DNA from: a virus
Length of the DNA stretch: 64,000 nt
Reading direction: 5' to 3' (one strand)
IMG/VR virus record: IMGVR_UViG_3300045988_159773
The first letter of the stretch is position 1. Each line of letters starts with the position of its first letter. This document shows positions 1,216-60,432 of this stretch, piece by piece. The notes beneath the pieces are model-generated. The model was given only the letters and a program-made list of their open reading frames with translations. It did no database searches and was not told the origin of the DNA. Position numbers and translations under genes: made by a program.

Positions 1216-2189
1216 TCTGCAATCTCCTTCCCGTAACGCTCTTCGACCTCTTTGAAAAAGAGTCCGATATGGTCGACGGTCGTTGCTTCGTCGTTTTCGA
1301 CCTCTTCCGAACCCAGACCAGCACCCGCAACGTCCGATGTCAATATACGGCTCGCCACCAGATATTTGTCCGCCCACTCCTTCATCGCTGGCTTCAACTC
1401 CGAGTCCGTTTGAATGGCGAGGACGTACCTCTTTACCTTGTCGGACTCAACCGCCTTGCGAATGTCCCTGCACTTCGGCTGGCTCGTATCCATCTTGCCG
1501 AACACCAGCGCGAACGGATTCTCGATGAATTCGTATTTGTTAGTTTCGGTATCGTAGACCGCCACACCGTGAGGGTCAAAGTTCTGAGTAAAGTTCTGCC
1601 CGCACAGGTTGCCAACAACCTGAATCTTGTCGCTCAACGTCATTCTCTGATGGTAGTGTCCGTTGAACCACATCTTGATGCGCGGCTCTTTGTTGATTTC
1701 GTCAATGCGGTATCCAGCCTCTTCTCCCGTGCCGAACATGCCTACAAAGTCGCAGTGAGAGAACACCACCACCCGCTCCGACTGCGACAACTTCTTCAAA
1801 AGCTCCGACAGCGGAGTCGGCGTCTTCGTGTACGGTATGAATAAAGCCCAGCCGATGTCTTTGCCGAAATTCTTCAACTGCGGCTTCTCATAGATTACGT
1901 GAATGTCGCGGAAGTATTTCAGCAGAGAGTTCTGACCGTCCTGCTCGTGATTTCCCGTAATGCAATGCCACGAACGGTTGAACGGTATCGACTCCAACAC
2001 CGCTACGTCCTCAGCAGTAAGGTGTGATGTGTTAAACATATCTCCCAAATCCACATTGAGCGAATTCGGAATCTCCTCGCTCAGTTTGTTCAGCCATTCG
2101 AACGACCGCGCCAAAAACGGATAACGGTTGTCCACCAGCGACTCTCTTTTGCAGAAATGAATATCTGCCGAAATAATTATCTTTGCCAC
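1203..2189 (-). CDS. sbcD: SbcD/Mre11-like metallophosphoesterase nuclease (T4 gp47-like)
   Basis: Contains calcineurin-type motifs: ISADIHF, DLGDMFN, ITGNHE, FSHCD and NGHYH. GTG start at 2189 follows CAGGAGGAG. It sits immediately upstream of the Rad50-like gene. Confidence 0.85.
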   Translation of the reverse strand: MAKIIISADIHFCKRESLVDNRYPFLARSFEWLNKLSEEIPNSLNVDLGDMFNTSHLTAEDVAVLESIPFNRSWHCITGNHEQDGQNSLLKYFRDIHVIYEKPQLKNFGKDIGWALFIPYTKTPTPLSELLKKLSQSERVVVFSHCDFVGMFGTGEEAGYRIDEINKEPRIKMWFNGHYHQRMTLSDKIQVVGNLCGQNFTQNFDPHGVAVYDTETNKYEFIENPFALVFGKMDTSQPKCRDIRKAVESDKVKRYVLAIQTDSELKPAMKEWADKYLVASRILTSDVAGAGLGSEEVENDEATTVDHIGLFFKEVEERYGKEIADAIR

Positions 2190-2207
2190 AAACTCCTCCT
2201 GACAGCA

Positions 2208-2235
2208 AAATGAGTATGCCTTCGCATACTCATTT
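2208..2235 (-). terminator. 12-bp stem hairpin (AAATGAGTATGC-GAAG-GCATACTCATTT) between the lipoprotein and Mre11 genes; terminator or 5'UTR structure
   Basis: The inverted repeat was read directly from the sequence. Its 5' arm overlaps the TTTGTATAAA motif and it is followed by TTTTG. Confidence 0.4.
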
Positions 2236-2259
2236 ATACAAATCTCGTCGTATTTTCGT

Positions 2260-2634
2260 TTATTCTTCGGAAACCCGCGTCAAAATCATTACTGGCGTTT
2301 CCTTGCTGTACGCTGGATTGTACATCGTGAGCGTGTTCTTGTCTTCCGACAGATACGCCTCCAGCGGCACGCCCTCAACGATAACAGTGAGAATGTTGTT
2401 GTCCGCATCGTACGAGCCGTCGGTTACCTGACCTTTCTTCACCTGCTCGCCGTTCACAGTTTCCCATATCGTATACGTTACCGTGCGATCTTCTTTGATG
2501 ACCACCTCTGTCACCGTCATATGGAACTCCTGACGGAACGTTCCTACATAGTCTTTCTCGTCGCACGCCGTCAACGCGAACAGACAGCACACCGCCAGCA
2601 TAAGCGGCATAAGAATCTTTGCGAACTTTTTCAT
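2260..2634 (-). CDS. Phage-encoded lipoprotein
   Basis: N-terminus MKKFAKILMPLMLAVCCLFALTAC has a signal peptide and an L-T-A-C lipobox. The gene is preceded by GTTATTTTAATCAGGAGG. Confidence 0.75.
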   Translation of the reverse strand: MKKFAKILMPLMLAVCCLFALTACDEKDYVGTFRQEFHMTVTEVVIKEDRTVTYTIWETVNGEQVKKGQVTDGSYDADNNILTVIVEGVPLEAYLSEDKNTLTMYNPAYSKETPVMILTRVSEE

Positions 2635-2662
2635 AGTTTCATCCTCCTGATTAAAATAACGC

Positions 2663-3607
2663 TTATTTGAGAACGCCGAACAGGTTCAGCTCTTTGTCGG
2701 CTACGTATTCCTTCATTTCGGAATAAGGAATCACGCCGAACCGCTTGCCGTCTTTGAATACCTCGAGGTTCGTGTCCCCGATGATGCTCCACGCCGAGAA
2801 CCCGCATACCTTCTTGCGCCCGATGTTCTCTTTAGCAAGGTGCTCGAGGAACAGAGGAACCGTAACGTCCGCTTTCGAAATGTCCTTGCCGAACATCGCT
2901 CCCCCGCCGTGACTGAACAGTCCACACGAACCGTCGCACGCCAACTTGCGACCCGTAAGCCCGCAGTCCGCAAAGCCGTGGCACTTGTGCCAATCGCCCT
3001 TAGGATTGATAATCACCGTCGTTCCCGAACCCGTAAACGTGTGAATAAAGCTCTCGAGCGCGACTCGGTTTGGTCCGAACGCCACGTTCTCAAACGATGC
3101 ACAATTGATAGTAAGGTCGGTTACGTTGCCTTTGGTGTCCATGTTGAAAATGAACTTGCCGTCCGTGCGGTATCCCCACTCACGCAACACAGGCGCAGTG
3201 AGGGCGGCGCACATATCTTTCATGCGGCGAATCACTGGGCTGTAAACCTTGTGATATCCGCCGAAGTAAATGCCGTTGTCTCCCGTGCCGCTTTCTCCGA
3301 CAATGTCGTTGATTTCGCTGGACTGAATGTTGAGGTTGTTCATAATGACAATGCTGCGCATCTCTTCGGGAGTAAGCCCAATGTCATTGGTCAGAATGTT
3401 GCGCACCAGCGTCTCAACCTCGTCCGCCTTCCACTTCTTGTCCGTCTCGCCGTTCACTATAAACAGCTGATTGCCCCAGCAACACTCGATAGCGTTGCGC
3501 CCGCCCTTGTTAGCGTCGCATACCGTCTTCGACACGAGGTCGCATACCTTATCGGGATGACCGATAAGCACCAGCTCAAATGCTTTAAGATTTTTCGTCT
3601 TCGTCAT
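2663..3607 (-). CDS. metK: Compact S-adenosylmethionine synthetase (MetK family), 314 aa
   Basis: MetK signatures are in the canonical order: GHPDKVCD, AIECC..IVNGE, GTGDNGIYFG, RTDGK, ADCGLTGRKLACD and HGGGAMFGKDISKAD. It is about 70 aa shorter than bacterial MetK. RBS GGGAG lies before the ATG. Confidence 0.8.
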   Translation of the reverse strand: MTKTKNLKAFELVLIGHPDKVCDLVSKTVCDANKGGRNAIECCWGNQLFIVNGETDKKWKADEVETLVRNILTNDIGLTPEEMRSIVIMNNLNIQSSEINDIVGESGTGDNGIYFGGYHKVYSPVIRRMKDMCAALTAPVLREWGYRTDGKFIFNMDTKGNVTDLTINCASFENVAFGPNRVALESFIHTFTGSGTTVIINPKGDWHKCHGFADCGLTGRKLACDGSCGLFSHGGGAMFGKDISKADVTVPLFLEHLAKENIGRKKVCGFSAWSIIGDTNLEVFKDGKRFGVIPYSEMKEYVADKELNLFGVLK

Positions 3608-3893
3608 AACATACTCCCATAGTTTTGCTTGTTTCTACATCAAGGAAATTCTTGTCCACGAACAGCTCCTTGACAGGGATAGATGCTCCCATAATTCCAA
3701 TCGGGGTGACCGCGAAAGCCAACGCCCTGCCTTGCTCCATATTTACCACTTCCAGCTCCATCAATCCCTTGGCGTGCAATAGAGATTCCGCTGGATACGT
3801 CGTTTCGTCACCCACCATCAGCGTGCCGCCGTTCTTAAAATGGATTGATATGAGTTTAGAGCCTAACGCCCTAGCAATCCGTTCTACTTTCAT
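3585..3893 (-). CDS. Hypothetical protein
   Basis: Intact ORF. ATGA overlap with the upstream HNH gene stop, and a 23-nt overlap with the metK start. Confidence 0.5.
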   Translation of the reverse strand: MKVERIARALGSKLISIHFKNGGTLMVGDETTYPAESLLHAKGLMELEVVNMEQGRALAFAVTPIGIMGASIPVKELFVDKNFLDVETSKTMGVCYDEDEKS

Positions 3894-4312
3894 TTGGCTC
3901 TCCCATACTTCATCGAACGGCGCATTGCCCTCAACTCCTCTTTCTTTTCCTCTTCTTGATTATCCCAATTCCCTAAATAAGTCAGAAAGCGCAAATTAGT
4001 AAAGTGGTTATTCTTTCGATTCCTGTCAATGTGGTCGACCACCATACCCTGCGGCTTCTCACCAATCCAAGCCTCAGCTACCAGCTGATGAACATATACA
4101 GTTATTCTTGGCTTTTTGTCGTGCATTGAAAATTTAGCCTTTTGCAACCCCGCGAGTCGAACATCCCGTATATAGCACCAGATATAATTACCATCGTAAA
4201 AACGAACCTGCTTCTTAGTTTCGCAATCCCGTAACACAGTGCCACAGTCTGAAATCTCATAAAGATTCAACAAACTCGGAACAGACTTAAACGTCACTCT
4301 TCTCTCCCTCAC
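3890..4312 (-). CDS. HNH homing endonuclease
   Basis: Motif VHQLVAEAWIGEKPQGMVVDHIDRNRKNNHFTNLRF, with a NUMOD4-like N-terminus (YEISDCGTVLR). Paralogous to 5513..5914. AT-richer than the flanking sequence by eye. Confidence 0.8.
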   Translation of the reverse strand: MRERRVTFKSVPSLLNLYEISDCGTVLRDCETKKQVRFYDGNYIWCYIRDVRLAGLQKAKFSMHDKKPRITVYVHQLVAEAWIGEKPQGMVVDHIDRNRKNNHFTNLRFLTYLGNWDNQEEEKKEELRAMRRSMKYGRAK

Positions 4313-4553
4313 TTGCCGCCTCAGTTACATCAATGTAAAGAATATTCTTTGTATTGATGTACCGCGTGGAAAAATCGTTCAACGTCACCGTGAGAACGCT
4401 CTCCTGCTTGAGGAAATGGTCAAGCACCGTGTTCTTAGTCGGCTCGTCCAAGATTAGGGTCACGCCTTGCGCACCCAGACCGCCGAACAGATTCGACTCC
4501 TGACGGTCGAACAGAATCTTGACTTGAAACTGCTTTTGCTTTTTATCGCTCAT
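4287..4553 (-). CDS. Hypothetical protein
   Basis: ORF with RBS AGGAAGGAG before the ATG at 4553. Confidence 0.5.
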   Translation of the reverse strand: MSDKKQKQFQVKILFDRQESNLFGGLGAQGVTLILDEPTKNTVLDHFLKQESVLTVTLNDFSTRYINTKNILYIDVTEAASEGEKSDV

Positions 4554-4686
4554 CGCTTAACTCCTTCCTCACCGATTGATTGACACGCGCCCGCATAATT
4601 CTGGTGTAGACTTTCTTGCACGCACGAGGGCTCTTGCCCCAGATACGACAGGTCGAATTAACCGCTTTAAGATTTCGATGCTTCAT
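4543..4686 (-). CDS. Small basic hypothetical protein (47 aa)
   Basis: My translation: MKHRNLKAVNSTCRIWGKSPRACKKVYTRIMRARVNQSVRKELSDER. No SD. The ATG is 6 nt downstream of GCTATT (GCTATTTTAATT-ATG). It fills an otherwise empty gap. Confidence 0.3.
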   Translation of the reverse strand: MKHRNLKAVNSTCRIWGKSPRACKKVYTRIMRARVNQSVRKELSDER

Positions 4687-4700
4687 AATTAAAATAGCCG

Positions 4701-5513
4701 TTAGAACAGAGTTCTGTTCCGCACTTGAACTGGGTGCAGTACATATTGCAGATAAATGTCCTCGCGGTAGTTTGGAAAGTTCCTGTGCTCATAAAGTCGA
4801 ATACCTTTCTCCGCCGCACCCCAGTGCAAAATAAAGTCCCCGTTGCCGAACATCTGCTCGCATTGCAAGTGCAAATGCTTCATTGCCATATAGTCCACGT
4901 ACTGGCAGAGGTTCGACCCCGCAGTGATATCCACCTTTCGAGGTCCATACCGTGACACCAAGTATCCGCCATCACGCTCCTCTCCATTCGGAATCTCCAA
5001 AATAGAGTAGCCGACCAACTTACCGTCCAGCCAGAAGTACAACGTCTGCACTCGGTCGCGAACCTCAGCGAGGTGGTGCGCGAAAAAGTTCTTATCGTAC
5101 GAACTCGCAAGCCGCGCCCCGTATTTCTTGCCAGACGTGTTGTCCCAATTCTTTATGAAGTGGAATAGTTCCTCCAACGTCGGGGTGTCCTGCCTGATTT
5201 CAATTGCCGACTTACCCCAGCGGCGAACTTGATACGCCATATTGTAGTTTTGCGAGCGCGGATTGTCTACGAACTCTTTGTTGATTAAGGACACCTCGGC
5301 TGGCATCTTGCTTGCCGACTTGACCTCGGGTCGCTTTTCCGTTACGTAGAAGTACGAAATCTTTGTAGCCGTCGGGTCGTAGAAGTCTTTGTCATACGCG
5401 CGGATGTCTTTCGTGTCCATCTTGTTCGGATACATCACCATACGCTCGTAGTCAATCGCTGAGCGCATTCCGCTGACGTATCGAATAATAAGCTCATCTG
5501 CGTAAGTTGTCAT
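4701..5513 (-). CDS. GNAT-fold-like protein (possible FemAB/MprF-C-type acyl- or aminoacyl-transferase)
   Basis: WLDGKLVGYSILE ... HWGAAEKGIRLYEHRNFPNY resembles GNAT/FemAB-type cores. ATG at 5513 shares TAATG with the HNH stop and follows GGAGG. The track ORF begins at an upstream GTG (5525). Confidence 0.35.
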   Translation of the reverse strand: MTTYADELIIRYVSGMRSAIDYERMVMYPNKMDTKDIRAYDKDFYDPTATKISYFYVTEKRPEVKSASKMPAEVSLINKEFVDNPRSQNYNMAYQVRRWGKSAIEIRQDTPTLEELFHFIKNWDNTSGKKYGARLASSYDKNFFAHHLAEVRDRVQTLYFWLDGKLVGYSILEIPNGEERDGGYLVSRYGPRKVDITAGSNLCQYVDYMAMKHLHLQCEQMFGNGDFILHWGAAEKGIRLYEHRNFPNYREDIYLQYVLHPVQVRNRTLF

Positions 5514-5914
5514 TAAAACCTCCACTCTGCCTTGCGAACCCCACGCCGAGCATTCGCAACTATCTTTTGTGCTTCTACAATTCTCTCAGTCGAAACCCTA
5601 ATTGTTTCTTCTGAAATGTTCTTGCTGTTTTCGCTCAACGAGCAGTACCGCAGATTCGAAATATGGTTGTTTGTCTTGTCGCGGTCGATATGGTCAATCA
5701 CCATTCCTTCTGGGCGTTCACCCAAAAAAGCGAGCGCGACCAGACGATGAACAGTCGTGCGAACGTGGCGCACCCGAACAGTAAGGTAGCCGTCCGAATT
5801 GCAATCCTGCTTGTAAACATAATCTCGCTCTACGTCCCTAATGACTTTCCCGTCCTCCGAAACATCGAGTTGAACCGAACGCCCCAACTTGTTAACCCAA
5901 AAATCGATTATCAT
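5513..5914 (-). CDS. HNH homing endonuclease
   Basis: Motif VHRLVALAFLGERPEGMVIDHIDRDKTNNHISNLRY. Paralog of 3890..4312. Confidence 0.8.
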   Translation of the reverse strand: MIIDFWVNKLGRSVQLDVSEDGKVIRDVERDYVYKQDCNSDGYLTVRVRHVRTTVHRLVALAFLGERPEGMVIDHIDRDKTNNHISNLRYCSLSENSKNISEETIRVSTERIVEAQKIVANARRGVRKAEWRF

Positions 5915-7251
5915 CTCTTCACCACGTTCACAATCTTCCCGTCGTGATTGAACATCGACTCATAGGTATCCTTTATCAACTTCTTGCCTTCTGGCGAGTT
6001 GAAAATCTCGTCGACAAAACTCACCGCCCCTTGACATCCTTTCGCACGTGTCGCGATTTCTGTCGGAATAAGGTCGTTGAACGCAGAGCGCAACAGCCAT
6101 TTGTTCACGCGCTTGCCCTGTAACTTGCCGTCCTTGAATCTCGGCGGCACGTTGCTTGCGAACTCGAGAAACTCGCGGTCGCTGAATGGGTCGACGTACG
6201 AAATCCCGCCAGCGTTGAGCATAACCTTTACCGAACGGTTCGGATTAATCCACGCCTTGTTGATGAGTTTCGTTCTCGCGTCCACATACTGCTCGTCGCG
6301 CCACGACCACCGCTCAATCTGCGGATAACTTGCAAAAATCTCGTCGGACAGGTCACCGCACAGCGCGGTAATGAATCCGTCTTTGGCGGCGGCTTTGGCA
6401 AGATAGTATTGACCGACCGCGCTCGTGATTTGAGTCCAATTCGAGTCCTCGTTGAAATAGATAATCTCGTTGAGGTCAGCCAGCACCTGCTCCTGCGTCA
6501 CAATGACCTCGGTCAGCGGAATGTCTAACTCCGCCGCTGCCCGTCTCGCATAGTAAAGGTCGGCTTTGCCTTTGTCACCGACTGAGAACGTGTACGCCGT
6601 TATGTCGGGCTTGAACTTCTTCGCCAGAGCCGCACACACCGTGCTGTCAACGCCGCCAGAGAGGAACACGCACATCCCGTTGGTGTTGTTTACAATCTTC
6701 GCAACCGCCGACGTCAACAGGTTGCGAATGCTCGTCAGCACCGACTCATCAGTGCCATCGTCCGCTATCAGTTCCCTGCTTATGGTCGAGTAAGAGCCGA
6801 CGTAGAACATACCGTCCCGCATCGTAATATACTCGCCCATCCCCAGCAGTTTGACGTCCTTCAACGGCAAGCCGAAAAAGCATTTGAGCTCACTGGCGAT
6901 GAGAATCTTGTTGCCGAACAAATTCTTCTGGCGGTAGTAATACAGTGGCACGCGACCGAGATAATCCCCCACCACCAAAAGCTCTCTGGTCTTGGTATCG
7001 TAGTTGAGGAAACCCACCACCCCGTCCACATTGGCGAACGACTTGATGCACCCTGTGACCAGTGGTCGAAAGTCTGTGCCATCAAACAGAATCGAGTCGG
7101 ACACCAGAACGGCATCACCGTCCACCACCAGCTCGTCCCCGCCGATGACAACATCACCGACCATTTGCAGGTCATACGCACGCTTGTGATGGTTAATCTT
7201 TTCAAAGCGCAACGCAGTGTCATTAAAGCCTTGTGAAAATATCATTGACAT
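5911..7251 (-). CDS. Asparagine synthetase B-like ATP-dependent amidoligase with a degenerate, shortened glutaminase domain
   Basis: PP-loop FLSGGVDSTV and the AsnB-type GDYLGRVPLYYY motif are present. The N-terminus is MSMIFS, where AsnB has MCSIFG, so the nucleophilic Cys is replaced by Ser. Confidence 0.7.
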   Translation of the reverse strand: MSMIFSQGFNDTALRFEKINHHKRAYDLQMVGDVVIGGDELVVDGDAVLVSDSILFDGTDFRPLVTGCIKSFANVDGVVGFLNYDTKTRELLVVGDYLGRVPLYYYRQKNLFGNKILIASELKCFFGLPLKDVKLLGMGEYITMRDGMFYVGSYSTISRELIADDGTDESVLTSIRNLLTSAVAKIVNNTNGMCVFLSGGVDSTVCAALAKKFKPDITAYTFSVGDKGKADLYYARRAAAELDIPLTEVIVTQEQVLADLNEIIYFNEDSNWTQITSAVGQYYLAKAAAKDGFITALCGDLSDEIFASYPQIERWSWRDEQYVDARTKLINKAWINPNRSVKVMLNAGGISYVDPFSDREFLEFASNVPPRFKDGKLQGKRVNKWLLRSAFNDLIPTEIATRAKGCQGAVSFVDEIFNSPEGKKLIKDTYESMFNHDGKIVNVVKR

Positions 7252-7271
7252 AATTAAATCTCCGTACTCAT

Positions 7272-7306
7272 ATTATACCAAAAACGGTGGATAAAATATC
7301 CACCGT
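7272..7306 (-). promoter_or_regulatory. Terminator hairpin (ACGGTGGAT-N5-ATCCACCGT + TTTTT) directly followed by an extended -10 promoter TGGTATAAT
   Basis: Read directly from the sequence. It lies between the small Zn-ribbon ORF and the AsnB-like gene. Confidence 0.55.
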
Positions 7307-7312
7307 CGGTAA

Positions 7313-7426
7313 TCAAAATGGCTTCGACATCCAATTGCACCGCGTACAGCACCAACGCCGACCGTACGTGAATATCGTCTCGACAGTGTGAACCGTGCAG
7401 CTCGCACCGCATTTCGGACAGGTCAT
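7313..7426 (-). CDS. Small zinc-ribbon protein (37 aa)
   Basis: My translation: MTCPKCGASCTVHTVETIFTYGRRWCCTRCNWMSKPF. Strong RBS TAAGGAGGAGCT before the ATG. It replaces the R-rich track ORF 7254..7586. Confidence 0.45.
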   Translation of the reverse strand: MTCPKCGASCTVHTVETIFTYGRRWCCTRCNWMSKPF

Positions 7427-7435
7427 AGCTCCTCC

Positions 7436-7975
7436 TTAATACGAACGCTTGTCTGCGAGCGCGTCGTCCTTTGCCTTGTATTCGGCAATAAGGTCGGGGT
7501 TGTCGTACACGTTGCCCACAACCTCCAAATCGTCCATGACCTCGCGCGAAAGCGGCTTTAACGTTCCTTTCAGTAGAAACCCGCAAGGCAGGTACTCTTG
7601 ATACTCGTTTCGGCAGGTGACTTCATACGCCAGCACTCGGTCATTCCCGCCGTGGTCGTTGAAGTACCACAGCACGATGTCGCCGTCGAAAATCATTTGA
7701 TGTTTTCGGTCGACCGCGCCAGACCATTGCCGAATGGTTTCGGGTATGCAGATGTACGACATCATCACACCCTTTTCCTCTCGCTCGATGCAGTATTTCA
7801 GGTATGCTGGATTCTCTTCGGTGTTGCGGCGTTTGGTTAAGTAGCCGTAAACGTATGGGTCACCCGCGAGGAAACCCTCGGGGTCTTCCTGCGGCTCGAC
7901 AGGCTTGCCCTTGAACACGACAAAATCGGCTGCGATTTTCCGCTCGAACGGCGGTGTGATTAAATCAAGTTTCAT
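7436..7975 (-). CDS. YopX-family protein
   Basis: C-terminal VVGNVYDNPDLI is the typical YopX motif. Start MKLDLITPP at 7975 follows AGGAGGT and overlaps the upstream stop. Confidence 0.65.
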   Translation of the reverse strand: MKLDLITPPFERKIAADFVVFKGKPVEPQEDPEGFLAGDPYVYGYLTKRRNTEENPAYLKYCIEREEKGVMMSYICIPETIRQWSGAVDRKHQMIFDGDIVLWYFNDHGGNDRVLAYEVTCRNEYQEYLPCGFLLKGTLKPLSREVMDDLEVVGNVYDNPDLIAEYKAKDDALADKRSY

Positions 7976-8601
7976 TTCTTTACCTCCTCGAACCAACCAG
8001 AGCCGAACATAGCAGTCGGACTGCTGAACGTGATTGTGCTTTTCCCGTCCAGAGTCTTGCCCTTGAACTTGAGCCGACCCAGCTCCCACTCGTCGTAGTC
8101 GAACACAAGAATAGAACCCTTGCGCAGAACCGCATAGTCCTTGCCCGCGACATTGGGATACATCCAGGCTTTAGGACTCTCAACGTCCCACGTATCTCCG
8201 TCATAGTCGAAGTAAAGCGTCTGGGTTGTACGAACCGTAATCGGCGTTTTGTCGACACAACTCCAAGTGCCGTTAAAGAACACCCAGTGAGTCTCCGCGC
8301 CAGACAGCACCGCAGTGTCCCCGTCCCTCGGCGAGGTTCTGATGCTCACCAGCGAGTCGAACACGCCAAGAAAACGCTCGTTGTGAGTAAGTTCGGGAGC
8401 TGAACCGCTTTCTTTGAGGTCGTCCTCGCTGCGCTCCGTGTTCATTTCCTTGACCAGCTCGGCAATGAACTCGCCGCTCGCAACCTCTTTGTAGTCATCT
8501 ACCTTTTCGGGCAAATAACGCTTGCAGAGGTAAAACACCATCGCCAGAGTTTGGTCGCTCGCGTTGTTTATGAATTTGAGGAATTCCTCTTTCGCCGTCA
8601 T
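7972..8601 (-). CDS. Hypothetical protein
   Basis: Intact 209-aa ORF, translationally coupled on both sides. Confidence 0.6.
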   Translation of the reverse strand: MTAKEEFLKFINNASDQTLAMVFYLCKRYLPEKVDDYKEVASGEFIAELVKEMNTERSEDDLKESGSAPELTHNERFLGVFDSLVSIRTSPRDGDTAVLSGAETHWVFFNGTWSCVDKTPITVRTTQTLYFDYDGDTWDVESPKAWMYPNVAGKDYAVLRKGSILVFDYDEWELGRLKFKGKTLDGKSTITFSSPTAMFGSGWFEEVKK

Positions 8602-8753
8602 ACTCTAACCTCCCACTTTTTCGCATTCGCTCTTGCGCGGTTCGCCGCTTCACGCTCCTGTTGCGCCTCGTTCGGCTTGCCGACCTTTTCCAAAATCTTT
8701 GCACGCTCATCGTGCTTGCGGGCGGCTTCCCGCCACTTCTCCGCCGTCGTCAT
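8598..8753 (-). CDS. Small helical hypothetical protein (51 aa)
   Basis: My translation: MTTAEKWREAARKHDERAKILEKVGKPNEAQQEREAANRARANAKKWEVRV. ATGA overlaps with both neighbouring genes. Confidence 0.4.
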   Translation of the reverse strand: MTTAEKWREAARKHDERAKILEKVGKPNEAQQEREAANRARANAKKWEVRV

Positions 8754-9127
8754 TTCTCGCCTCGCAATAAGGTCATATCAAATCCGCTGTTGATGAAACG
8801 GTTGCATAGGTCTCTGTTACACCCGTTGCCCAACTTGACGTAAATGTCTTCCCAGTCAGCCGCCGGAAAGTCCGTGCCCAGATAACGGTTAACGCCGCGC
8901 GAGATAAAGTCGTGCAGTGCCTCGCTCTTTGCGTCGTCCGTTCCATAAACGGTCTTGAAAGCCGCACGCGAAAAGCATATGAGTAGTTTGGCTTGAACAT
9001 CGCGCTCGCACGCGCAACAATTCAAAATAAAGTACGTGTTGCTTTCACGGTGCGCTATGAACTCCTCGTTGTCGTTGATAATGCTACCTGGAAAGCACTT
9101 GAATAATTTGCGTTCAAAATCGTACAT
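8750..9127 (-). CDS. Hypothetical protein
   Basis: 125-aa ORF with RBS GCGGAGG. Confidence 0.6.
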   Translation of the reverse strand: MYDFERKLFKCFPGSIINDNEEFIAHRESNTYFILNCCACERDVQAKLLICFSRAAFKTVYGTDDAKSEALHDFISRGVNRYLGTDFPAADWEDIYVKLGNGCNRDLCNRFINSGFDMTLLRGEK

Positions 9128-15406: not shown

Positions 15407-16117
15407 TTACTTTAATACAACATCGGTGCCCGCAGATAAATACTCCACCAGCAACTCAGATGCAAGCCCGCACGCAGAGTCAAAATTGACTCCTTCGTAC
15501 TGCTCTTTCTGCTTGCCGCTGCCGATAACATCGCACACAGATTTGAGCGACACCAGCCGCACGCCGAACTGCGAACACGCCGCCGCGATTCCGAACAGCT
15601 CCATATCCACGTAATAAGGCTCGCCGTCCTGCAGCAGTTCGTTCGGGTCAGTGCAGAAGTGGTCCTGCGTGAAACAGGTACGCGTCTTCTCCGCCGTCGC
15701 GACTTCAAGCACTGGTTTGCGGAACGCTTCTCCGTCCACCGCACTCGTGTCAAAGTCGTTGTTGCACACACGATGTATCTGCACGCACTTTGCGTCGCGC
15801 GCCGCCACGTCGTTGCCGCCGCAGACACCCACGTTGATGCACAGCACGTTGGTAAACTCCTGCGGATTGAGGGCGAAAACGGCATTGAGAGCCATCGAGG
15901 TACTCACTGCCGCATTGACTTTGCCAACACCCGTGATAACGCTCCAGATATCCGTGCGACCGAGCAAACCCAACTTCGTCAGCGCGGGCTGCACGATTTT
16001 GTCGCGCTCCGATTGCATAGCAGTAAAGATGAGTACCTTTGGGAACTCCACCTTGACCTGCTCCTCTTTCTTCGCCTCTTCCTTGATAGGCTCAGCCGCT
16101 TTTTCTTTCTTTTCCAT
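15407..16117 (-). CDS. mtnN: 5'-methylthioadenosine/S-adenosylhomocysteine nucleosidase-like (PNP_UDP_1 fold)
   Basis: Motifs ITGVGKVNAA, CINVGVCGG, YYVDMELFGIAAAC and LKSVCDV parallel the MtnN motifs GIGKVAAA, INTGSAGG, VEMEA..IA and AISD. Start MEKKEK at 16117 follows AGGAG. Confidence 0.75.
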   Translation of the reverse strand: MEKKEKAAEPIKEEAKKEEQVKVEFPKVLIFTAMQSERDKIVQPALTKLGLLGRTDIWSVITGVGKVNAAVSTSMALNAVFALNPQEFTNVLCINVGVCGGNDVAARDAKCVQIHRVCNNDFDTSAVDGEAFRKPVLEVATAEKTRTCFTQDHFCTDPNELLQDGEPYYVDMELFGIAAACSQFGVRLVSLKSVCDVIGSGKQKEQYEGVNFDSACGLASELLVEYLSAGTDVVLK

Positions 16118-24256: not shown

Positions 24257-24926
24257 TTACCTCACCTCCCTCTTTTGGCGTGTTGCCGTCGGGCGGCAAC
24301 TTGTTTGCTTCCTGTTCCTTCTCCCAGCATTCGCGACAGAGGACAGGCGCATCAGGCTCGAGGGGATACGCGTGATGCGTTTCAAACCACTCGCCATTAA
24401 GGTCAACATCCGCACCGCAAACACAGCACTTCTCGATGTTTGGCAATTCGGCTTTGGTAACCGCGAAAGACTCCGTGCCAGCGTTGAGCTGTCTGCATTT
24501 CGCCAGAGCCTCCTCCTCGGTCTTGAACACGAGGTCTTGCAGAATCATATCTCCGTTGACCTTGTACAGAACGCCGTGGTCATTTCGAATTTGAATCTCT
24601 TCCGTCTTGCCGCGCAACGCTGCAAACTGCCAGCCGAACTGAACCTGCAACCGACCTGGCACCTGCGAGCGCACTTGCTTGAACATGACGTAGTAAACCT
24701 CTTCGCCGATGTCGTGCTTGAACTCCTTCATAACACTTGCATCGGCTTCGGGTATCGTTTCCTTCATAGGAATAGAGTCTTGGATGGCTTTGACTTCATC
24801 AAACACAATCCCTGATATAAACTTTGCAAGATTCTCTTTGAAAACCTTGCCCGCACCCTTGCCATCGCCGCTCTTTTCCGTGGCGAGAAATTCATTTATT
24901 TTCTTTTTTAACATAGCGTTCTCCAT
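24090..24926 (-). CDS. Hypothetical protein with Cys motifs (CCVCG...CREC) and an acidic G/D/E/N tail
   Basis: ATG at 24926 follows GGGAGGG. The last 55 codons overlap the next gene in another frame. Confidence 0.55.
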   Translation of the reverse strand: MENAMLKKKINEFLATEKSGDGKGAGKVFKENLAKFISGIVFDEVKAIQDSIPMKETIPEADASVMKEFKHDIGEEVYYVMFKQVRSQVPGRLQVQFGWQFAALRGKTEEIQIRNDHGVLYKVNGDMILQDLVFKTEEEALAKCRQLNAGTESFAVTKAELPNIEKCCVCGADVDLNGEWFETHHAYPLEPDAPVLCRECWEKEQEANKLPPDGNTPKEGGEVNGDEENGDEGNGGSDGNGKEAEGEVKEDGNAVDTGSAQVGSDSAGESDGAREGAV

Positions 24927-25452
24927 ACAGGTCCCTCCCGACTTTATCTAGTATAGAATTTAACTTGGAAGTATTGGGAATAAGATTTCCATCTTTATCA
25001 AGTTTTGGCGAACCCGACTTGTCGACCTGTATAAGACCCAGCACCAGACAAACCTCTTTCTTGTTCATCCCTTCGCATATGCACTTGATTACGTCGTTCA
25101 CCAGCGGGTCGGCGTTGCTGTATAAATCGAAAAAACACCCGTCCACAGGTGGCTGGATGTTTTTATCTGGGTCATCGAGAGAATCCGTCAATGCGGCATT
25201 CTTCGCATACTTCTTGTCTGAATACGTGCCGAAAAGAGCCGCCCAGATGTAGCTAGCCGCATACGTGCTGAACTTTGCTCCAAATTCGGGTGAGTAAAAG
25301 CGGGCTGCATTGATTAAGCCGAGCATTCCCTCCTGAATTAAATCTTCGTCATATATTCCTCTTTTATGTACCTGGGCGTAAACAAGCCCGACATTGTCCT
25401 CAACCAATTTTCTTTGAGCATCGTTGAGAGATGCGTTACCAATATTCGCCAT
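24892..25452 (-). CDS. Sigma-70-family RNA polymerase sigma factor
   Basis: DLIQEGMLGLINAARFYSPEFGAKFSTYAASYIWAAL matches sigma region 2. The ATG at 25452 has no SD and lies 6 nt after the -10 TATGCT. Confidence 0.8.
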   Translation of the reverse strand: MANIGNASLNDAQRKLVEDNVGLVYAQVHKRGIYDEDLIQEGMLGLINAARFYSPEFGAKFSTYAASYIWAALFGTYSDKKYAKNAALTDSLDDPDKNIQPPVDGCFFDLYSNADPLVNDVIKCICEGMNKKEVCLVLGLIQVDKSGSPKLDKDGNLIPNTSKLNSILDKVGRDLYGERYVKKENK

Positions 25453-25458
25453 GTACAT

Positions 25459-25487
25459 AGCATAGCACAAACGAAAAAATTTGGCAA
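25459..25487 (-). promoter_or_regulatory. Early promoter TTGCCA-17-TGcTATGCT (extended -10) for the sigma factor gene; likely a leaderless transcript
   Basis: Hexamers read directly from the sequence. Near-identical to the promoter at 11053..11081. Confidence 0.6.
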
Positions 25488-52949: not shown

Positions 52950-53498
52950 TTAATCAAACGTTGGGTCTTCGATTTGTTTCTCTTGTTCGGCGGGGTCATC
53001 GAACGGCGGCAGAACATACCCGCGAGCGCGGTCACGTTGCATACACCTCAGCATAGAAGATAGAATGACTTCCTTGTCCGCCCGCAGTTCAACCTTTCTA
53101 CACGACTTTATGCAATGCAGGGAACGCAACCCATCAATGAACTCCGCGCGGTATTGAACGCCTCGTGGCGTCTGTTCGGAAATCTGCTCCGCTCGGTCAA
53201 TCGCCACGTACACGCCGACGTGCTTCGGAATATCGTCCTTGACTTTTTCATAGACCGACAACGGCATTACAAAATAATTCCTGTTGCCAATAAAGGTCCA
53301 TGCGTGACCAGAGCGAAAGTCCGCGACAGAGGACTTAATCTCGTAACACACCGTCTCGCGGTTGCAGTTGTACATAATGCAGTCCACAACCTCACTGCCG
53401 TACCACCCGATGGTGCATTCGAATGTATAGAACTCAGAGCGACTCGTAAAAAGTCGCTCTAAAAGTTGCTCCAATTTTCTCGTAATAAAGCTCTTCAC
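52950..53498 (-). CDS. MmcB-like PD-(D/E)xK nuclease-fold protein
   Basis: EVVDCIMYN...CYEIKSSVADFRS...NYFVMP fits the D...E.K core of MmcB-type proteins. Confidence 0.55.
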   Translation of the reverse strand: MKSFITRKLEQLLERLFTSRSEFYTFECTIGWYGSEVVDCIMYNCNRETVCYEIKSSVADFRSGHAWTFIGNRNYFVMPLSVYEKVKDDIPKHVGVYVAIDRAEQISEQTPRGVQYRAEFIDGLRSLHCIKSCRKVELRADKEVILSSMLRCMQRDRARGYVLPPFDDPAEQEKQIEDPTFD

Positions 53499-53501
53499 AA
53501 A

Positions 53502-54272
53502 TTACCTCGGTTTATGAATTGGCGGGTCTACTCTCCTTTCGCGAGGGTGGAAACCCTGGTCTGGGTCGCTAACGCTGTACCCCTCGCAATCCTCGTACGT
53601 TCCTTGAAAGCCGACCGAAACCAACTTCGGCGGGTACTTCATATAGAACTCGCGGTGCGTTTCGGGTCGTTTCCAATAGTCCAACACGCCCTCAGCCTCA
53701 AGCCGCTTCTTCGCCGCCTCCACTTCCTCATTATAAAGATAAATGCCAAGCGTTCGATTGTGCGAGGTGTAACGGCTGTGTTCGGGCATCATCGGCATGA
53801 CGTCCCCGTCATAGAGCAAACCCTGCGCGGGGTGCGGAATGTACTTGGTCTCGCGGTCAAAGCAGTTCTCTTCGAACGGAATGTTGTCAAGCGGCGCGGA
53901 AATAAGGAACTTGCGCTTCTCAAACTTGTACATAGGTCGCAACTCGTGGGTGATAATGAACTTGCGCCCGTTCTCTTTCCAGATTTCGGGTAGCCACTTG
54001 CTCTCGTCACTTCCAAGGTTGAGAGTGACCTCCGCGCCGACCTTGAACTCCTTTTCCTGTCGCGTGCTGTTCGTGCTCATCGGCTTCACAGCCTCGTGAT
54101 TCCAAAACGCCAGAATCTCGTGAATGTCATATTTGGCGCACGAATGCTCGTCCGCGTGCGGTCCGAGGTCTCCGTAATCCTGATAATGGTCGCGGATAAA
54201 CCCGCCGCCGAACTCCTTAGGAATAAGGAACTTGAACGCGCACCCGCCGTAGATGTTTTCGTACTTGCCCAA
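53502..54272 (-). CDS. Hypothetical protein. TTG start, or the continuation of an ATG at 54305 interrupted by an in-frame TAG.
   Basis: 256-aa ORF. A strong RBS and ATG lie 33 nt upstream in the same frame, followed by a TAG after 5 codons. Confidence 0.5.
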   Translation of the reverse strand: MGKYENIYGGCAFKFLIPKEFGGGFIRDHYQDYGDLGPHADEHSCAKYDIHEILAFWNHEAVKPMSTNSTRQEKEFKVGAEVTLNLGSDESKWLPEIWKENGRKFIITHELRPMYKFEKRKFLISAPLDNIPFEENCFDRETKYIPHPAQGLLYDGDVMPMMPEHSRYTSHNRTLGIYLYNEEVEAAKKRLEAEGVLDYWKRPETHREFYMKYPPKLVSVGFQGTYEDCEGYSVSDPDQGFHPRERRVDPPIHKPR

Positions 54273-54347
54273 CTTGTCCGCTCTGTTCTAACTGAAACTG
54301 CCCATTTGTTCAATCCTCCTTTGATGGTTACGTATACGCCAGACCGC

Positions 54348-54614
54348 TCAATCCTTTGCGCTCTCCACCCGTAAGACCTCAATGCAGTCCTCGCCGTTTT
54401 TGCCCGCGACTTGCAACGCGAACCGAGCAACACCCAGAGAGGTCAGCATACTCGAAAACTGCCGCAATTTCTCCATCTGCTGCGCGTCGTACCCGTCAGC
54501 CCGAACGGTGAAAATGTACAGCATATTCGGATTGTTCAGTTCAATGCCCTGAGTCCGAATAAGCCTCTTTTTGATATCTCCGTACCGCTTTCTCATTCTT
54601 TTTCCGATCTCCAT
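54348..54614 (-). CDS. Hypothetical protein
   Basis: 88-aa ORF. Confidence 0.45.
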   Translation of the reverse strand: MEIGKRMRKRYGDIKKRLIRTQGIELNNPNMLYIFTVRADGYDAQQMEKLRQFSSMLTSLGVARFALQVAGKNGEDCIEVLRVESAKD

Positions 54615-54922
54615 ATGATTTTGAGGTAGTTACACCCAAGACCGTCGAACGTGTAACCAAGTGGCTTGAAATGCGATATTAAGGCTTCTCGCAAAGTGTC
54701 TTCTATTTCATCAATCGACAGCGCGATTCCGTCGGTAAACTCCGATCCGCACAGGTTTGGCGAGTCACACGAGAACGCCCCGCGCTCAACCGCTTCCTCA
54801 ATGTTTTTCTCGGTCTGGTCAATTGCACGCTCGATTGAATCGTTCAGCAACTTCTCAAGCCGCTCCTGAGACCGCTTCGAAATCTCTCTTGCCCGCATAT
54901 TTGCCTCACTTGCGTTCAACAT
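54593..54922 (-). CDS. Hypothetical protein
   Basis: Start MLNASEAN at 54922 follows GAGGAGGG. Confidence 0.5.
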   Translation of the reverse strand: MLNASEANMRAREISKRSQERLEKLLNDSIERAIDQTEKNIEEAVERGAFSCDSPNLCGSEFTDGIALSIDEIEDTLREALISHFKPLGYTFDGLGCNYLKIIWRSEKE

Positions 54923-58566: not shown

Positions 58567-60432
58567 CTACGAGAACTGTTTACCAAACTCCGCGATAAAT
58601 TGTTCGCGCGTATACGTAATTATTGCCCCATCGACAATCTTGGTCTCGTACTTTCCTTTGCCACCCTTTATCCAGTGGCTTTGAATGTTCAGCCCGCGAG
58701 CCACTTTGATGGGAAATTGAATGTCGTCAAGCGATGCCACTGGAATCGGAACGCACCGACAATTTCCCACAAAAATCGCTGGACAAAGTTGATAAATTCC
58801 AGTATAATGTTCAATGTTATGAACAAACAAAGAATCTATTCTTCTGACTTTTTTCACAAGGCGCACAAAATGCACACCATCGATAGAATCCCTATTTGCA
58901 AGGTCGCTTCCATCCTTGGATGCAAGAGCGACACGCTCAAGAATGGATTTATTCGTCTCGGACTCCCATTCACACTCAACATCCCCCCTGCGCAAAGCAA
59001 ACTCCCCTCGAATAAAATTATTGACAAATTTAATAAAGGTCAGTCTGTTCTCAGCCTTTCCAAAGAATTCAACGTCGACCGTGGAGTTATTGTGAGACTG
59101 CTCAACAACAACGGAATCAAAGAGCGTACTGGTAGCCAAGCCAATATTATCAGATTCCAAAACACACCGCAAGACCAACTCAAACAGCTCACCAAATCTG
59201 CCAATGAGACTCTGCGCGGCAGAAAGTACACCGCTGACGAACTCCACGCCCGCGCCCTTAAAAGAGAGGTCAACGGAACTATGCACGCGCACATCGGATT
59301 CTTTGAAAACGAAGTCCGACAGGAATTTGAAAAGTTCGGATATAAAGTCACTCCGCAAAAAGCTATCTACGGATACAATGTCGACCTCTTTATCAACGAT
59401 TCCGTCATTGTGGAAGTCGAACCCGTTGCTCAATTCCTTTTCAAGATGCCCAGCACACATAAAGGCAAAAAACTTAAAGAGCTGCTCAAAGGAAATTACA
59501 AGGTCATCTACATTGTTCCCATGAGCAAATCCGCGACTCCCTATAACATAGTCCCCCTCTTCCAACTCCTTGACCGAACGGAAACCGACTGGAGTCACGA
59601 ATGGGTGATTAGGTGTAACAGTGACGGTAATGCCATCATCGAAAGTTAAATCAAAGACTTCCCCCTCATACTCTCTGCGGTAAACCTTATTTATTCCGTA
59701 GAGAGTTTTTATTTCTGTTTCACCACTAAAACAATTAATGAACCGACCGCAGTGGTTCTGGTAGTTGTCAATCGTTGGCGGGTCATTCCAAAAGAACAGC
59801 ACCCCGTCCAGAATAGAGTGGGAACTACGCACCCGCGAGTCCTCGCTTGTCGACCAGATGTAAGCGTTCAGTCCGATTTTCTGCATACGTAATTGGGTAA
59901 GCGTCGAGGTGATTTTTGCAGACTCTGTGCGGATGATTACCCGCGCTCGCTTGCCCAGTCGCTCCGTCAGTTCTTTGGCAAACTCCGTACCGCGAAACGC
60001 CGTCCCTCTCTTATACGCCCTTTCCATATCGAGCGCGATGTCCTGCGGCAGGTCTTTGATTAAGGACACGTTATGCCTGAACGCCTCCATGAACCTGTCG
60101 TAGTCCTCTTTGTTGTTCAGCAGATTTTTCGCCCGCAAATTCAAGTACTTGTTCCGTGGATTCTGAATGAACGCGCCGACAATCAACTCGAACTCCTTGC
60201 CCGACTTTGCAAAAGTCGAGTTCGACAGGTTGAGGATGGATTGCTTCAACGGCTTTATGGTAAACTCGTGCAAAATCATATCAACCTCTTCGTATGATTT
60301 TGCCTTGCGAATGCGCGACGTAAGCTGTGCCTCGACTTGCGCTTTGAACGCCGCCGTCAGCAGATTCTCCTGTGTCCAATTCGATTTCAGTTTGCGATTT
60401 ATCTTCCTACGGAGTCTTTTCGTCAATTTCAT
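58567..60432 (-). CDS. MuF/SPP1-gp7-like minor head protein interrupted by a 324-aa intein
   Basis: MuF motifs ARVIIRTESAKI, SRVRSSHSILDG and FFWNDPP. The conserved H..CRC motif is split as NHCGRFIN | intein | CRCVPIPV. Confidence 0.8.
   Translation of the reverse strand: MKLTKRLRRKINRKLKSNWTQENLLTAAFKAQVEAQLTSRIRKAKSYEEVDMILHEFTIKPLKQSILNLSNSTFAKSGKEFELIVGAFIQNPRNKYLNLRAKNLLNNKEDYDRFMEAFRHNVSLIKDLPQDIALDMERAYKRGTAFRGTEFAKELTERLGKRARVIIRTESAKITSTLTQLRMQKIGLNAYIWSTSEDSRVRSSHSILDGVLFFWNDPPTIDNYQNHCGRFINCFSGETEIKTLYGINKVYRREYEGEVFDLTFDDGITVTVTPNHPFVTPVGFRSVKELEEGDYVIGSRGFAHGNNVDDLVISFEQLFKFFAFMCAGHLEKELSNGFDFHNDGIVDKEVDIVSVDSFLRSDFISELFKFLSDFVFKESDVRVHSSVDLSFKGAGVEFVSGVLSAAQSLIGRFGELFELVLRCVLESDNIGLATSTLFDSVVVEQSHNNSTVDVEFFGKAENRLTFIKFVNNFIRGEFALRRGDVECEWESETNKSILERVALASKDGSDLANRDSIDGVHFVRLVKKVRRIDSLFVHNIEHYTGIYQLCPAIFVGNCRCVPIPVASLDDIQFPIKVARGLNIQSHWIKGGKGKYETKIVDGAIITYTREQFIAEFGKQFS
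58780..58808 (+). promoter_or_regulatory. Plus-strand sigma-70-type promoter TGGACA-17-TATAAT in front of the antisense nuclease gene
   Basis: Hexamers and the 17-nt spacer were counted directly. The in-frame ATG at 58819 lies 11 nt after the -10 element, so the leader would be very short. Confidence 0.55.
58819..59649 (+). CDS. HTH plus PD-(D/E)xK-like nuclease (putative homing endonuclease), encoded antisense inside the intein
   Basis: MNKQRIYSS...IPICKVASILGCKSDTLKNGFIRLGL...SVLSLSKEFNVDRGVIVRLLNNNGI (two HTH-like segments) ...ENEVRQEFEKFGYKV...YNVDLFINDSVIVEVEP. It uses no TTA, CTA or TCA codons and has its own promoter. It is the only protein-like plus-strand ORF in the window. Confidence 0.6.
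   Translation: MNKQRIYSSDFFHKAHKMHTIDRIPICKVASILGCKSDTLKNGFIRLGLPFTLNIPPAQSKLPSNKIIDKFNKGQSVLSLSKEFNVDRGVIVRLLNNNGIKERTGSQANIIRFQNTPQDQLKQLTKSANETLRGRKYTADELHARALKREVNGTMHAHIGFFENEVRQEFEKFGYKVTPQKAIYGYNVDLFINDSVIVEVEPVAQFLFKMPSTHKGKKLKELLKGNYKVIYIVPMSKSATPYNIVPLFQLLDRTETDWSHEWVIRCNSDGNAIIES

Follow-up and report, generated by a model that had tools for sequence, protein, structure and literature searches.

The 64,000-nt stretch of viral DNA from IMG/VR record IMGVR_UViG_3300045988_159773, which belongs to an uncultured gut phage (hereafter the window; all coordinates are positions in this whole stretch) carries a gene cluster centred on a predicted AsnB-like amide ligase and a tandem GNAT protein of 270 amino acids (aa). 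Each gene of the cassette region lies on the minus strand. Read in transcription order, the region comprises a YopX-like gene, the AsnB-like gene, an HNH gene, the GNAT gene, a gene for an 88-aa protein, another HNH gene, a 102-aa open reading frame (ORF), a MetK-like gene, a lipoprotein-like ORF, SbcD and SbcC. Four of these genes, encoding the AsnB-like ligase, tandem GNAT, 88-aa protein and MetK-like protein, make up a conserved cassette, which in the window is split by the two selfish HNH genes.

Conservation of the cassette and HNH insertions

The initial annotation of the window had read the HNH genes as selfish insertions and the genes between them as a possible small biosynthetic cassette, for instance for a hypermodified base. 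An HNH-free arrangement was indeed found in three diverged phage contigs of ~90 kb (L005, L006/L007 and L035). Here the AsnB-like, GNAT, small-ORF and MetK-like genes are contiguous and partly overlapping, and SbcD and SbcC follow. The ligases of these HNH-free orthologs are about 50% identical to the window ligase. In L005, L006 and L035 the AsnB-like and GNAT genes overlap directly, the HNH gene at 5513-5914 being absent from that junction. The contiguous order without HNH genes in these relatives implies that the cassette is real and that the HNH genes are insertions. The idea of a biosynthetic cassette stands as far as the co-conserved gene order is concerned; the hypermodified product is a matter of interpretation, taken up below.

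The second HNH gene (3890-4312) is missing from L005 and L006 as well as from the near-identical contig L009. At L009 3013-3189, compared with window 3585-4312, the second HNH gene is absent and only 58 aa of the 102-aa ORF remain, which suggests that the homing-endonuclease insertion is polymorphic in a single phage population. The 102-aa ORF was rejected as a cassette member, as it is not conserved: L005 and L006 have no homolog and L009 only the 58-aa version.

Ligase and GNAT homologs occur together on at least eight further contigs, which were paired by equal bp figures. Co-occurrence in relatives is thus based on synteny and on equal contig bp figures, with flanks read to ±10 kb. Since each cassette ORF has homologs (43-92% identity) on independent metagenome contigs, the ORFs are not chance reading frames. 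A megablast search of window positions 2000-9000 against the phage collection matched nothing, and the related-locus search with single window proteins retrieved nothing beyond the same phage. The features are listed in the following table.

Features of the cassette region and of related genes. Positions refer to the window unless a contig is named.
Feature	Position	Strand	Evidence or remark
YopX-like gene	7436-8089	-	first in transcription order of the region
AsnB-family ATP-dependent amide ligase (predicted), 446 aa	5911-7251	-	Pfam Asn_synthase 6.4e-42
HNH homing-endonuclease gene	5513-5914	-	HNH_3 4.5e-16; phrog_59, phrog_99
Tandem (dupli-)GNAT, 270 aa, FemX-like and aminoacyl-phosphatidylglycerol synthase (aaPGS)-like	4701-5513	-	AlphaFold2 fold and Foldseek
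Conserved acidic 88-aa protein	4287-4553	-	phrog_31833
Second HNH homing-endonuclease gene	3890-4312	-	HNH_3 1.2e-13
Lineage-specific 102-aa ORF	3585-3893	-	5' part goes with the HNH insertion
Compact MetK-family S-adenosylmethionine (SAM) synthetase, 314 aa	2663-3607	-	S-AdoMet_synt_N and S-AdoMet_synt_C; phrog_1569
Methylthioadenosine/S-adenosylhomocysteine (MTA/SAH)-nucleosidase-like protein	15407-16117	-	PNP_UDP_1 5.5e-9
Amino-methyltransferase-like protein, 477 aa	55981-57414	-	partner-family hidden Markov model (HMM) 5.4e-17; phrog_12517
Anticodon-less tRNA-like RNA, G3:U70 acceptor stem	L031 1231-1306 (sibling contig, about 11-12 kb beyond window position 1)		
Transfer-messenger RNA (tmRNA) reduced to its tRNA-like domain, 82 nt	L031 434-515		RF00023 39.7 bits, model positions 1-374
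tRNA-Pro	L031 276-352		

A predicted AsnB-derived ligase that has lost its glutaminase site

The AsnB-like protein contains the PP-loop LSGGVDST and the motif PLYYY and starts with MSMIFS. These features (the PP-loop noted as SGGVDS) and a shortened N-domain had been pointed out in the initial annotation. They were confirmed by alignment, which moreover revealed the deletion of glutamine-site segments. Compared with relatives of 46-55% identity, two deletions leave the window ligase without Cys1, the HRG/RLxI segment, NGE(V/I)Y and the SDT segment. The GATase_7 match in Pfam (1.9e-7) covers the C-terminal part of that domain only.

The database search delineated a compact family of ~23 proteins with 46-92% identity. 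Most members are 467-498 aa long, start with MCGII and keep HRG, NGEVY and SDT; the N-terminal nucleophile (Ntn) glutaminase of the Cys-bearing members is seemingly largely intact. Starts without Cys (MS, MG or MI) are found in the window ligase and six others (P0002-5, P0009, P0010). In a maximum-likelihood tree all seven Cys-less ligases form one clade with a support of 100/100 and a long stem, nested inside the Cys-bearing family. Compared with its Cys-bearing relatives the window ligase is more conserved in the synthetase domain (56-64% identity) than in the N-domain (34-48%). The sequences indicate that Cys1 was lost once and that evolution was faster from then on, so that the clade would be a clear natural case of an AsnB enzyme evolving rapidly after a single loss of its glutaminase.

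AsnB residue numbers were counted on an alignment with 1CT9. The window clade has deleted or replaced the segments of the glutamine pocket that carry R49, N74-G75-E76 and D98; in the Cys-bearing phage clade, too, R49 is not kept but is a Leu. Throughout the phage family, the deeper branches P0024 and P0025 included, the motif WTQIS (WTQI(T/S)S) stands where AsnB has DVTTIRAS, i.e. T322 is kept, T323 is changed to Q and R325 to S. We take R325 to be needed for the formation of beta-aspartyl-AMP in E. coli AsnB, as in published mutagenesis, and T322 and T323 presumably contribute to the same step. The window clade additionally shows E348->D and loss of the E398/R400 pair, the region of which we assume to be part of the ammonia-tunnel network of AsnB/ASNS.

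With the NCBIfam models the AsnB-like protein reaches 161 bits for NF006949 (cut-off 499) and 157 bits for TIGR01536 (cut-off 267). With scores below these AsnB equivalog cut-offs, Cys1 and the glutamine pocket gone and R325 replaced by Ser, a bona fide asparagine synthetase was rejected, in agreement with the initial annotation, which had expected another activity. Its analogy to beta-lactam synthetases and lasso-peptide cyclases is not the best one. Searched against the PDB, the family profile retrieves AsnB (1CT9) with 1e-90, beta-lactam synthetase with 1.7e-30 and CarA with 2.2e-22, and the lasso-cyclase model yields 33.6 bits for the window protein at a cut-off of 525. Both candidates were rejected on these values, and the closest functional precedent is instead CmoY (see below). 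Because the ~50%-identical sister proteins retain Cys1, the ancestral chemistry was presumably amidation, not cyclisation. Gat-QueC and 7-deazaguanine synthesis were rejected as well: the QueC matches comprise the PP-loop only (residues 195-252, 30 bits), compared to 145 bits for Asn_synthase.

We conclude that the protein is, by prediction, an ATP-dependent amide ligase derived from AsnB, whose PP-loop synthetase domain is intact and whose cis-glutaminase is dead. Its acyl substrate is probably not aspartate. As the sequences read, the nitrogen donor in the window clade cannot be glutamine hydrolysed in cis. The cassette is found with Cys-bearing and with Cys-less ligases, which points to an amidation fed by glutamine-derived ammonia or by free ammonia or an amine.

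Beside the deep-branching relative P0024, at L044 1830-3227, a protein of >466 aa is encoded that carries an IIDGNNRD motif and a C-terminal H-rich motif. It recalls DUF262/GmrSD or ParB-like proteins and has no Pfam match.

The 270-aa protein is a predicted tandem GNAT

The 270-aa protein itself matched nothing in Pfam or PHROGs, and a tblastn search of the phage collection matched nothing either. An exhaustive phmmer search yielded 64 relatives. Of the 57 aligned homologs 17 match PF09924 (best 1.1e-7), the LPG_synthase_C domain of aminoacyl-tRNA-dependent aaPGS enzymes; the window protein has no such match. The AlphaFold2 model, for which the homolog alignment served as input, has a predicted local distance difference test score (pLDDT) of 94.8 and a predicted template modelling score (pTM) of 0.90. 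Foldseek was run against the PDB. The top 20 matches are mostly MprF, FemX, A-PGS (alanyl-phosphatidylglycerol synthase), Sba18/Sbb17, DUF2156 and other tandem GNATs, with E-values of ~1e-7 and template modelling (TM) scores of 0.42-0.54. The family is basic (isoelectric point 8.3-9.5), and the window protein is 66% identical to its L005 ortholog. A GTG at 5525 is an alternative start and would extend the protein to 274 aa.

Based on the confident model we assign the protein to the tandem GNATs, with a FemX/MprF-like character suggested by its best fold matches. The GNAT/FemAB-like features suspected at the outset are thus corroborated by the PF09924 matches of its homologs, by the model and by best fold matches to aminoacyl-tRNA transferases. 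It is a candidate aminoacyl-tRNA-dependent (or acyl) transferase.

The 88-aa protein, MetK and a nucleosidase

The 88-aa protein is 43-55% identical to the small ORF located between GNAT and MetK in L005 and L006, and appears to be the fourth conserved member of the cassette. The MetK-like protein comprises 314 aa compared to ~384 aa in a full three-domain MetK. Its S-AdoMet_synt_N and S-AdoMet_synt_C matches are both above the gathering scores, while the central domain was not detected with Pfam. The alignment with E. coli MetK shows that H14, D16, K17, E42, E55, Q98, D118, D238, R244, K245, K265, K269 and D271 are kept, as are the motifs GHPDK and GTGDNG. Identity to the L005 ortholog is 64%.

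Elsewhere in the window a nucleosidase-like protein is encoded. Its PNP_UDP_1 match exceeds the gathering score, and all eight of its eight PDB sequence matches are MTA/SAH nucleosidases (best 1.7e-6). Orthologs are present in L005, L006 and L008. Hence the MetK-like gene and the MTA/SAH nucleosidase (MTAN)-like gene are both conserved in the clade.

Distant GNAT homologs are paired with a methyltransferase-like protein

A further set of GNAT homologs, more distant in sequence (240-256 aa, about 25-34% identity), occurs in other phages, including jumbo-phage fragments. Here an amino-methyltransferase-like gene adjoins the GNAT gene, usually overlapping it, in 11 of 11 evaluable loci, i.e. those with enough flanking sequence (loci named: L010-13, L018, L019, L022, L024-28). 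The partner protein has a length of 372-379 aa, and in three loci (L026-L028) it is part of a 718-aa fusion with a homing-endonuclease-like N-terminus. The partner family exhibits Rossmann motif I, the motif IV SCPPYF, a weak PF01555 match, and matches to phrog_12517 and phrog_498 ("DNA methyltransferase"). Two of the 11 loci sit among genes for ThyA-like protein, SHMT, dNMP kinase, dUTPase and dCMP deaminase. The GNAT/methyltransferase-like pair is a conserved two-gene module in diverse phages, many of them represented by jumbo-phage fragments.

The window contains exactly one homolog of the partner family, the 477-aa protein (BLASTP 26% identity over 222 aa, 8e-15, in addition to the HMM match). 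Its motif I reads YDAFQGFLGRALGAG and its motif IV-like sequence TCSPYG. The core of the AlphaFold2 model (pLDDT 80-97) adopts a class I methyltransferase fold. The best Foldseek matches are Trm11 (tRNA m2G10), HemK and a Type I M subunit, with low TM scores of 0.27-0.4. All three are enzymes that alkylate exocyclic or amide nitrogens. Homologs of the 477-aa protein with 73-88% identity share contigs with the cassette, namely the L005 contig (92,579 bp) and an 89,678-bp GNAT contig; the protein cluster also reaches a 94,963-bp contig.

tRNA-like RNAs and genomic surroundings

About 14 kb downstream of the cassette and on the same strand, the phage encodes a 79-nt tRNA-like RNA, an 82-nt mini-tmRNA and a tRNA-Pro. 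On the sibling contig L031 a GIY-YIG gene lies among these three RNA genes. The 79-nt tRNA-like RNA scores 42 bits with the Rfam tRNA model and is not called by ARAGORN. A mini-tmRNA-like element is found at the equivalent place in one diverged relative. A scan of five distant GNAT-phage records (13-84% complete fragments) for mini-tmRNAs gave one match of 19.8 bits and one of 9.2 bits. As the acceptor arm is the main recognition element of FemX-type enzymes (discussed in PMC13219725), the phage tRNA-like RNAs could be dedicated alanyl donors for the tandem GNAT. By analogy to these enzymes, a role as aminoacyl donors is possible.

The neighbourhood of the cassette is a replication/recombination module with clamp loader, SSB, RecA, a DnaB-like helicase, SbcCD and ligase. 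A 192-aa protein encoded between the replication and tail modules (24892-25470) matches sigma-70 region 2 (3.3e-8), identifying a phage-encoded sigma factor. A Mu F-like head-morphogenesis gene (58567-60432) matches the intein-splicing domain PF14890 (1.4e-5).

A putative SAM-fed pathway for base hypermodification

Taken together, the cassette, the 477-aa protein and the nucleosidase-like protein may represent a SAM-fed multi-enzyme pathway for nucleic-acid base hypermodification of a new composition. This is the explanation we prefer, albeit tentatively and at somewhat short of an even chance. The target is most likely phage DNA, though it may be tRNA instead. In favour of such a pathway we count the HNH-free gene order kept within a replication/recombination module, the divergence of the ligase family from AsnB, the tandem-GNAT fold, the methyltransferase-like neighbour of distant GNAT homologs and its counterpart in the window, the conserved MetK-like and MTAN-like genes, and the tRNA-like RNAs.

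Two recently described systems guide this interpretation. CmoY, a phage asparagine-synthetase homolog, catalyses the ATP-dependent ligation of glycine to 5-carboxymethylcytosine in DNA (PMC12783734, Nat Commun 2025). The base is installed by CmoX, a C5-methyltransferase homolog with an SPPC motif and R350, using carboxy-SAM (Cx-SAM) from CmoA in Synechococcus phage S-B43. A second kind of CmoY cluster with a glutaminase domain exists, from which a soluble enzyme was not obtained (PMC12783734). Mom of phage Mu, a GNAT with the catalytic residues R111 and S124, takes glycine from Gly-tRNA and attaches it to N6 of adenine in DNA, resulting in N6-carbamoylmethyl-adenine (PMC13219725, Nat Commun 2026).

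Starting from the observed domain identities, folds, glutaminase loss, synteny and co-occurrence, we propose the following scheme, in which every substrate, the order of the steps and the target are conjectural. MetK would supply SAM. The methyltransferase-fold protein would put a SAM-derived group, preferably 3-amino-3-carboxypropyl (acp), on the exocyclic amine of a base. The tandem GNAT would then acylate or aminoacylate the free amine; its donor could be an aminoacyl-tRNA, e.g. the phage's own alanine-accepting tRNA-like RNAs. Adenylating and then amidating the carboxylate would be the task of the AsnB-like enzyme, with free ammonia or another amine as donor in the Cys-less window clade and glutamine-derived ammonia in the Cys-bearing sister clade. 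The nucleosidase-like enzyme would clear the by-products MTA and SAH. We favour acp because it offers an alpha-amine to the GNAT, an alpha-carboxylate to the AsnB-like ligase and MTA to the nucleosidase, and seemingly it is the only SAM-derived group that would give every conserved enzyme a substrate. We hold this specific chemistry much less firmly than the general hypermodification reading.

Several points weigh against a hypermodification pathway. The modified base is a prediction from the genes, and acp transfer by this methyltransferase fold is a conjecture. In the window clade the GNAT and the methyltransferase-like gene are 50 kb apart, and the flanks (±6-10 kb) of the distant GNAT-methyltransferase loci contain no AsnB-like or MetK-like gene. 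The methyltransferase-like fold fits the tRNA m2G enzyme Trm11 and the protein-modifying HemK at least as well as DNA methyltransferases, with low TM scores throughout. Compact MetK genes are common in phages, often stand-alone near ordinary DNA methyltransferases. Moreover the link between mini-tmRNA and GNAT may be coincidental. As to the Cmo precedent, CmoA (TIGR00740) was not found in the 80%-complete, 76.7-kb sibling contig, and the window contains neither a C5 methyltransferase nor a recognisable enzyme for installing a carboxylate handle. SpCmoY is only remotely similar to the window ligase (BLAST 25% over 87 aa; hhalign 97%, E 5e-11). The AsnB homolog gp124 of Streptomyces phage TurkishDelight (see below) shares 28-31% identity with the AsnB-like family, no closer than short cellular AsnBs.

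Alternative explanations

The same proteins could serve a tRNA-centred system, in which tRNAs or the phage alanine tRNA-like RNAs would be the substrates of the GNAT and of the Trm11-like methyltransferase. For example, host or phage tRNA would be modified to evade anticodon nucleases, or Ala-tRNA-like donors would be used to aminoacylate an acceptor other than a nucleic acid (for instance a peptide, lipid or cell-wall precursor), and the AsnB-like enzyme would amidate the product. The top fold matches of the GNAT, aminoacyl-tRNA transferases acting on lipids, peptidoglycan precursors and natural products, agree with this, as do Trm11 as top match of the 477-aa protein and the non-decoding RNAs of Ala identity encoded by the phage. 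AsnB paralogs that amidate the meso-diaminopimelate (mDAP) of peptidoglycan exist as well (AsnB1/LtsA). However, neither a membrane domain nor a Mur-ligase context is present, the cassette resides in a DNA replication/repair module, and distant homologs are found among genes of dNTP metabolism. The TM scores of the 477-aa protein cannot separate RNA from DNA methyltransferases. We regard a tRNA-centred system as unlikely.

Alternatively, SAM itself might be the substrate of a small-molecule or anti-defence pathway. With MetK producing SAM, GNAT and AsnB-like enzyme would N-acylate and amidate SAM or methionine, and the resulting SAM analogue would feed a dedicated transferase or disturb SAM-dependent host defences such as Type I/III restriction-modification or bacteriophage exclusion (BREX). 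SAM carries a free alpha-amine as well as an alpha-carboxylate, the phage encodes an MTAN-like protein, and the MetK-like, GNAT and AsnB-like genes are contiguous and co-conserved. With CmoA there is a precedent for phages making altered SAM cofactors (PMC12783734), and SAM manipulation is, according to a preprint (bioRxiv 10.1101/2023.02.27.530186), a known anti-BREX and anti-restriction strategy. The distant GNAT homologs, however, pair with a methyltransferase-fold protein, and their examined flanks lack MetK-like and AsnB-like genes. We know of no enzyme of these families that acts on SAM in such a way. The explanation is purely inferential, and we consider it, including either fate of the analogue, quite unlikely.

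We think it highly unlikely that the genes are unlinked auxiliary metabolic neighbours, i.e. an ammonia-dependent asparagine synthetase, an acetyltransferase and a SAM synthetase feeding ordinary DNA methylation. It is true that the ligase matches AsnB best in both the PDB and NCBIfam, that AsnB can use ammonia in vitro, and that the frequency of stand-alone compact MetK genes in phages would fit. Yet strict gene order and overlaps are kept across proteins that have diverged to 50-66% identity. The equivalog scores are far too low, R325 is lost family-wide and the window clade has lost E398/R400 besides E348->D. Moreover the GNAT family is tied to its methyltransferase-like partner in each evaluable locus.

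Returning to base hypermodification, if true it would mean a new class of DNA/RNA hypermodification and new anti-restriction chemistry in human-gut phages. It would assign a function to the widespread two-gene GNAT/methyltransferase-like module and possibly to non-decoding alanine tRNA-like RNAs. In its most elaborate form the pathway would combine a SAM-derived amino-carboxy-alkyl group attached by the methyltransferase-like protein, tRNA-dependent aminoacylation by the GNAT from the non-decoding Ala tRNA-like RNAs, and amidation by the glutaminase-dead AsnB-like ligase, a hypermodification not described so far. We rate this combined route as very unlikely. If it applied, orphan phage RNAs such as the anticodon-less tRNA and the reduced tmRNA would gain a function, and three chemistries not yet seen together would be united.

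Comparison with known systems

With E. coli AsnB (1CT9) and human ASNS the window ligase shares the two-domain architecture, the PP-loop SGGxDS, D351/E352/Y357 and the residues of the K376/R387/K390 region. Missing compared to E. coli AsnB are Cys1, R49, N74/E76, D98, R325 (Ser), T323 (Gln), E348 (Asp) and E398/R400.

Diphthamide synthesis offers a parallel by analogy only. There Dph2 transfers acp from SAM and Dph6, a PP-loop diphthine-ammonia ligase, acts later; i.e. once a SAM-derived acp group is in place, an ATP-dependent PP-loop enzyme amidates its carboxylate with ammonia. In contrast to the proposed pathway, the target is a histidine in a protein, the chemistry is of the radical-SAM type and the enzymes are unrelated.

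The tandem GNAT shares the dupli-GNAT fold with FemX, aaPGS (MprF C-terminal domain, DUF2156, PF09924) and Sba18, its best Foldseek matches. Sequence identity to them is 10-15%, and the window protein differs by the lack of a membrane or flippase domain and by its DNA-metabolism context. Mom is likewise a phage protein of the GNAT superfamily and sets a precedent for an aminoacyl-tRNA donor in DNA base hypermodification. In contrast to Mom, a single GNAT acting alone, the window protein is a tandem GNAT nearest to FemX/aaPGS and thereby set apart in architecture. Moreover its gene is embedded among those for an amide ligase and a SAM synthetase, and its relatives have a methyltransferase-like partner.

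The CmoA/X/Y system resembles the window cluster most in its logic of cofactor supply, transferase and ligase. In both, a phage AsnB homolog acts as ATP-dependent amide ligase (by prediction in the window) beside SAM-cofactor-dependent modification genes, and versions with and without glutaminase exist on both sides. The Cmo system contains neither a tandem GNAT nor MetK, whereas the window ligase has both as neighbours. Membership in CmoA/X/Y was rejected, as CmoA was not found in the 80%-complete sibling contig and the window has no C5 methyltransferase. The sole PF00145 match in the sibling contig is to a gene that is strain-variable, circularly permuted and absent from the window.

In detail, 1.56 kb of the window (53294-54854) are replaced by a 1.36-kb insert in the near-identical sibling (L036 1249-2612; IMG/VR contig G002 65591-66954). 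It encodes a 396-aa C5 DNA-methyltransferase-like protein whose motifs are apparently circularly permuted (IV?-VI-VIII-IX-X-I-II). The match to motif IV is in a different reading frame, and the insert truncates an MmcB-like ORF. The insert is a strain-variable methyltransferase island.

Among cultured phages, the nearest homolog of the window ligase family is gp124 of TurkishDelight (31% identity, 1e-47). In this phage (L042, NC_073473.1 88490-93518) gp121-125 comprise two ParB proteins, a C5 methyltransferase (TIGR00675 1e-48), the glutaminase-bearing AsnB homolog and a CmoA-like protein (TIGR00740 2.6e-25). These matches suggest that gp123-125 of this cultured phage make up an entire Cmo-type cluster, one of the ammonia/glutamine kind.

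By analogy, both enzyme types of the cassette have recent direct precedents in phage DNA hypermodification, the action of AsnB-type ligases (CmoY) and tRNA-dependent GNATs (Mom) on phage DNA having been demonstrated only in 2025-2026. What is new here is the association of an AsnB-type ligase, a FemX-like tandem GNAT and a SAM synthetase in one conserved operon, tied through distant GNAT homologs to the uncharacterised amino-methyltransferase-like family phrog_12517.

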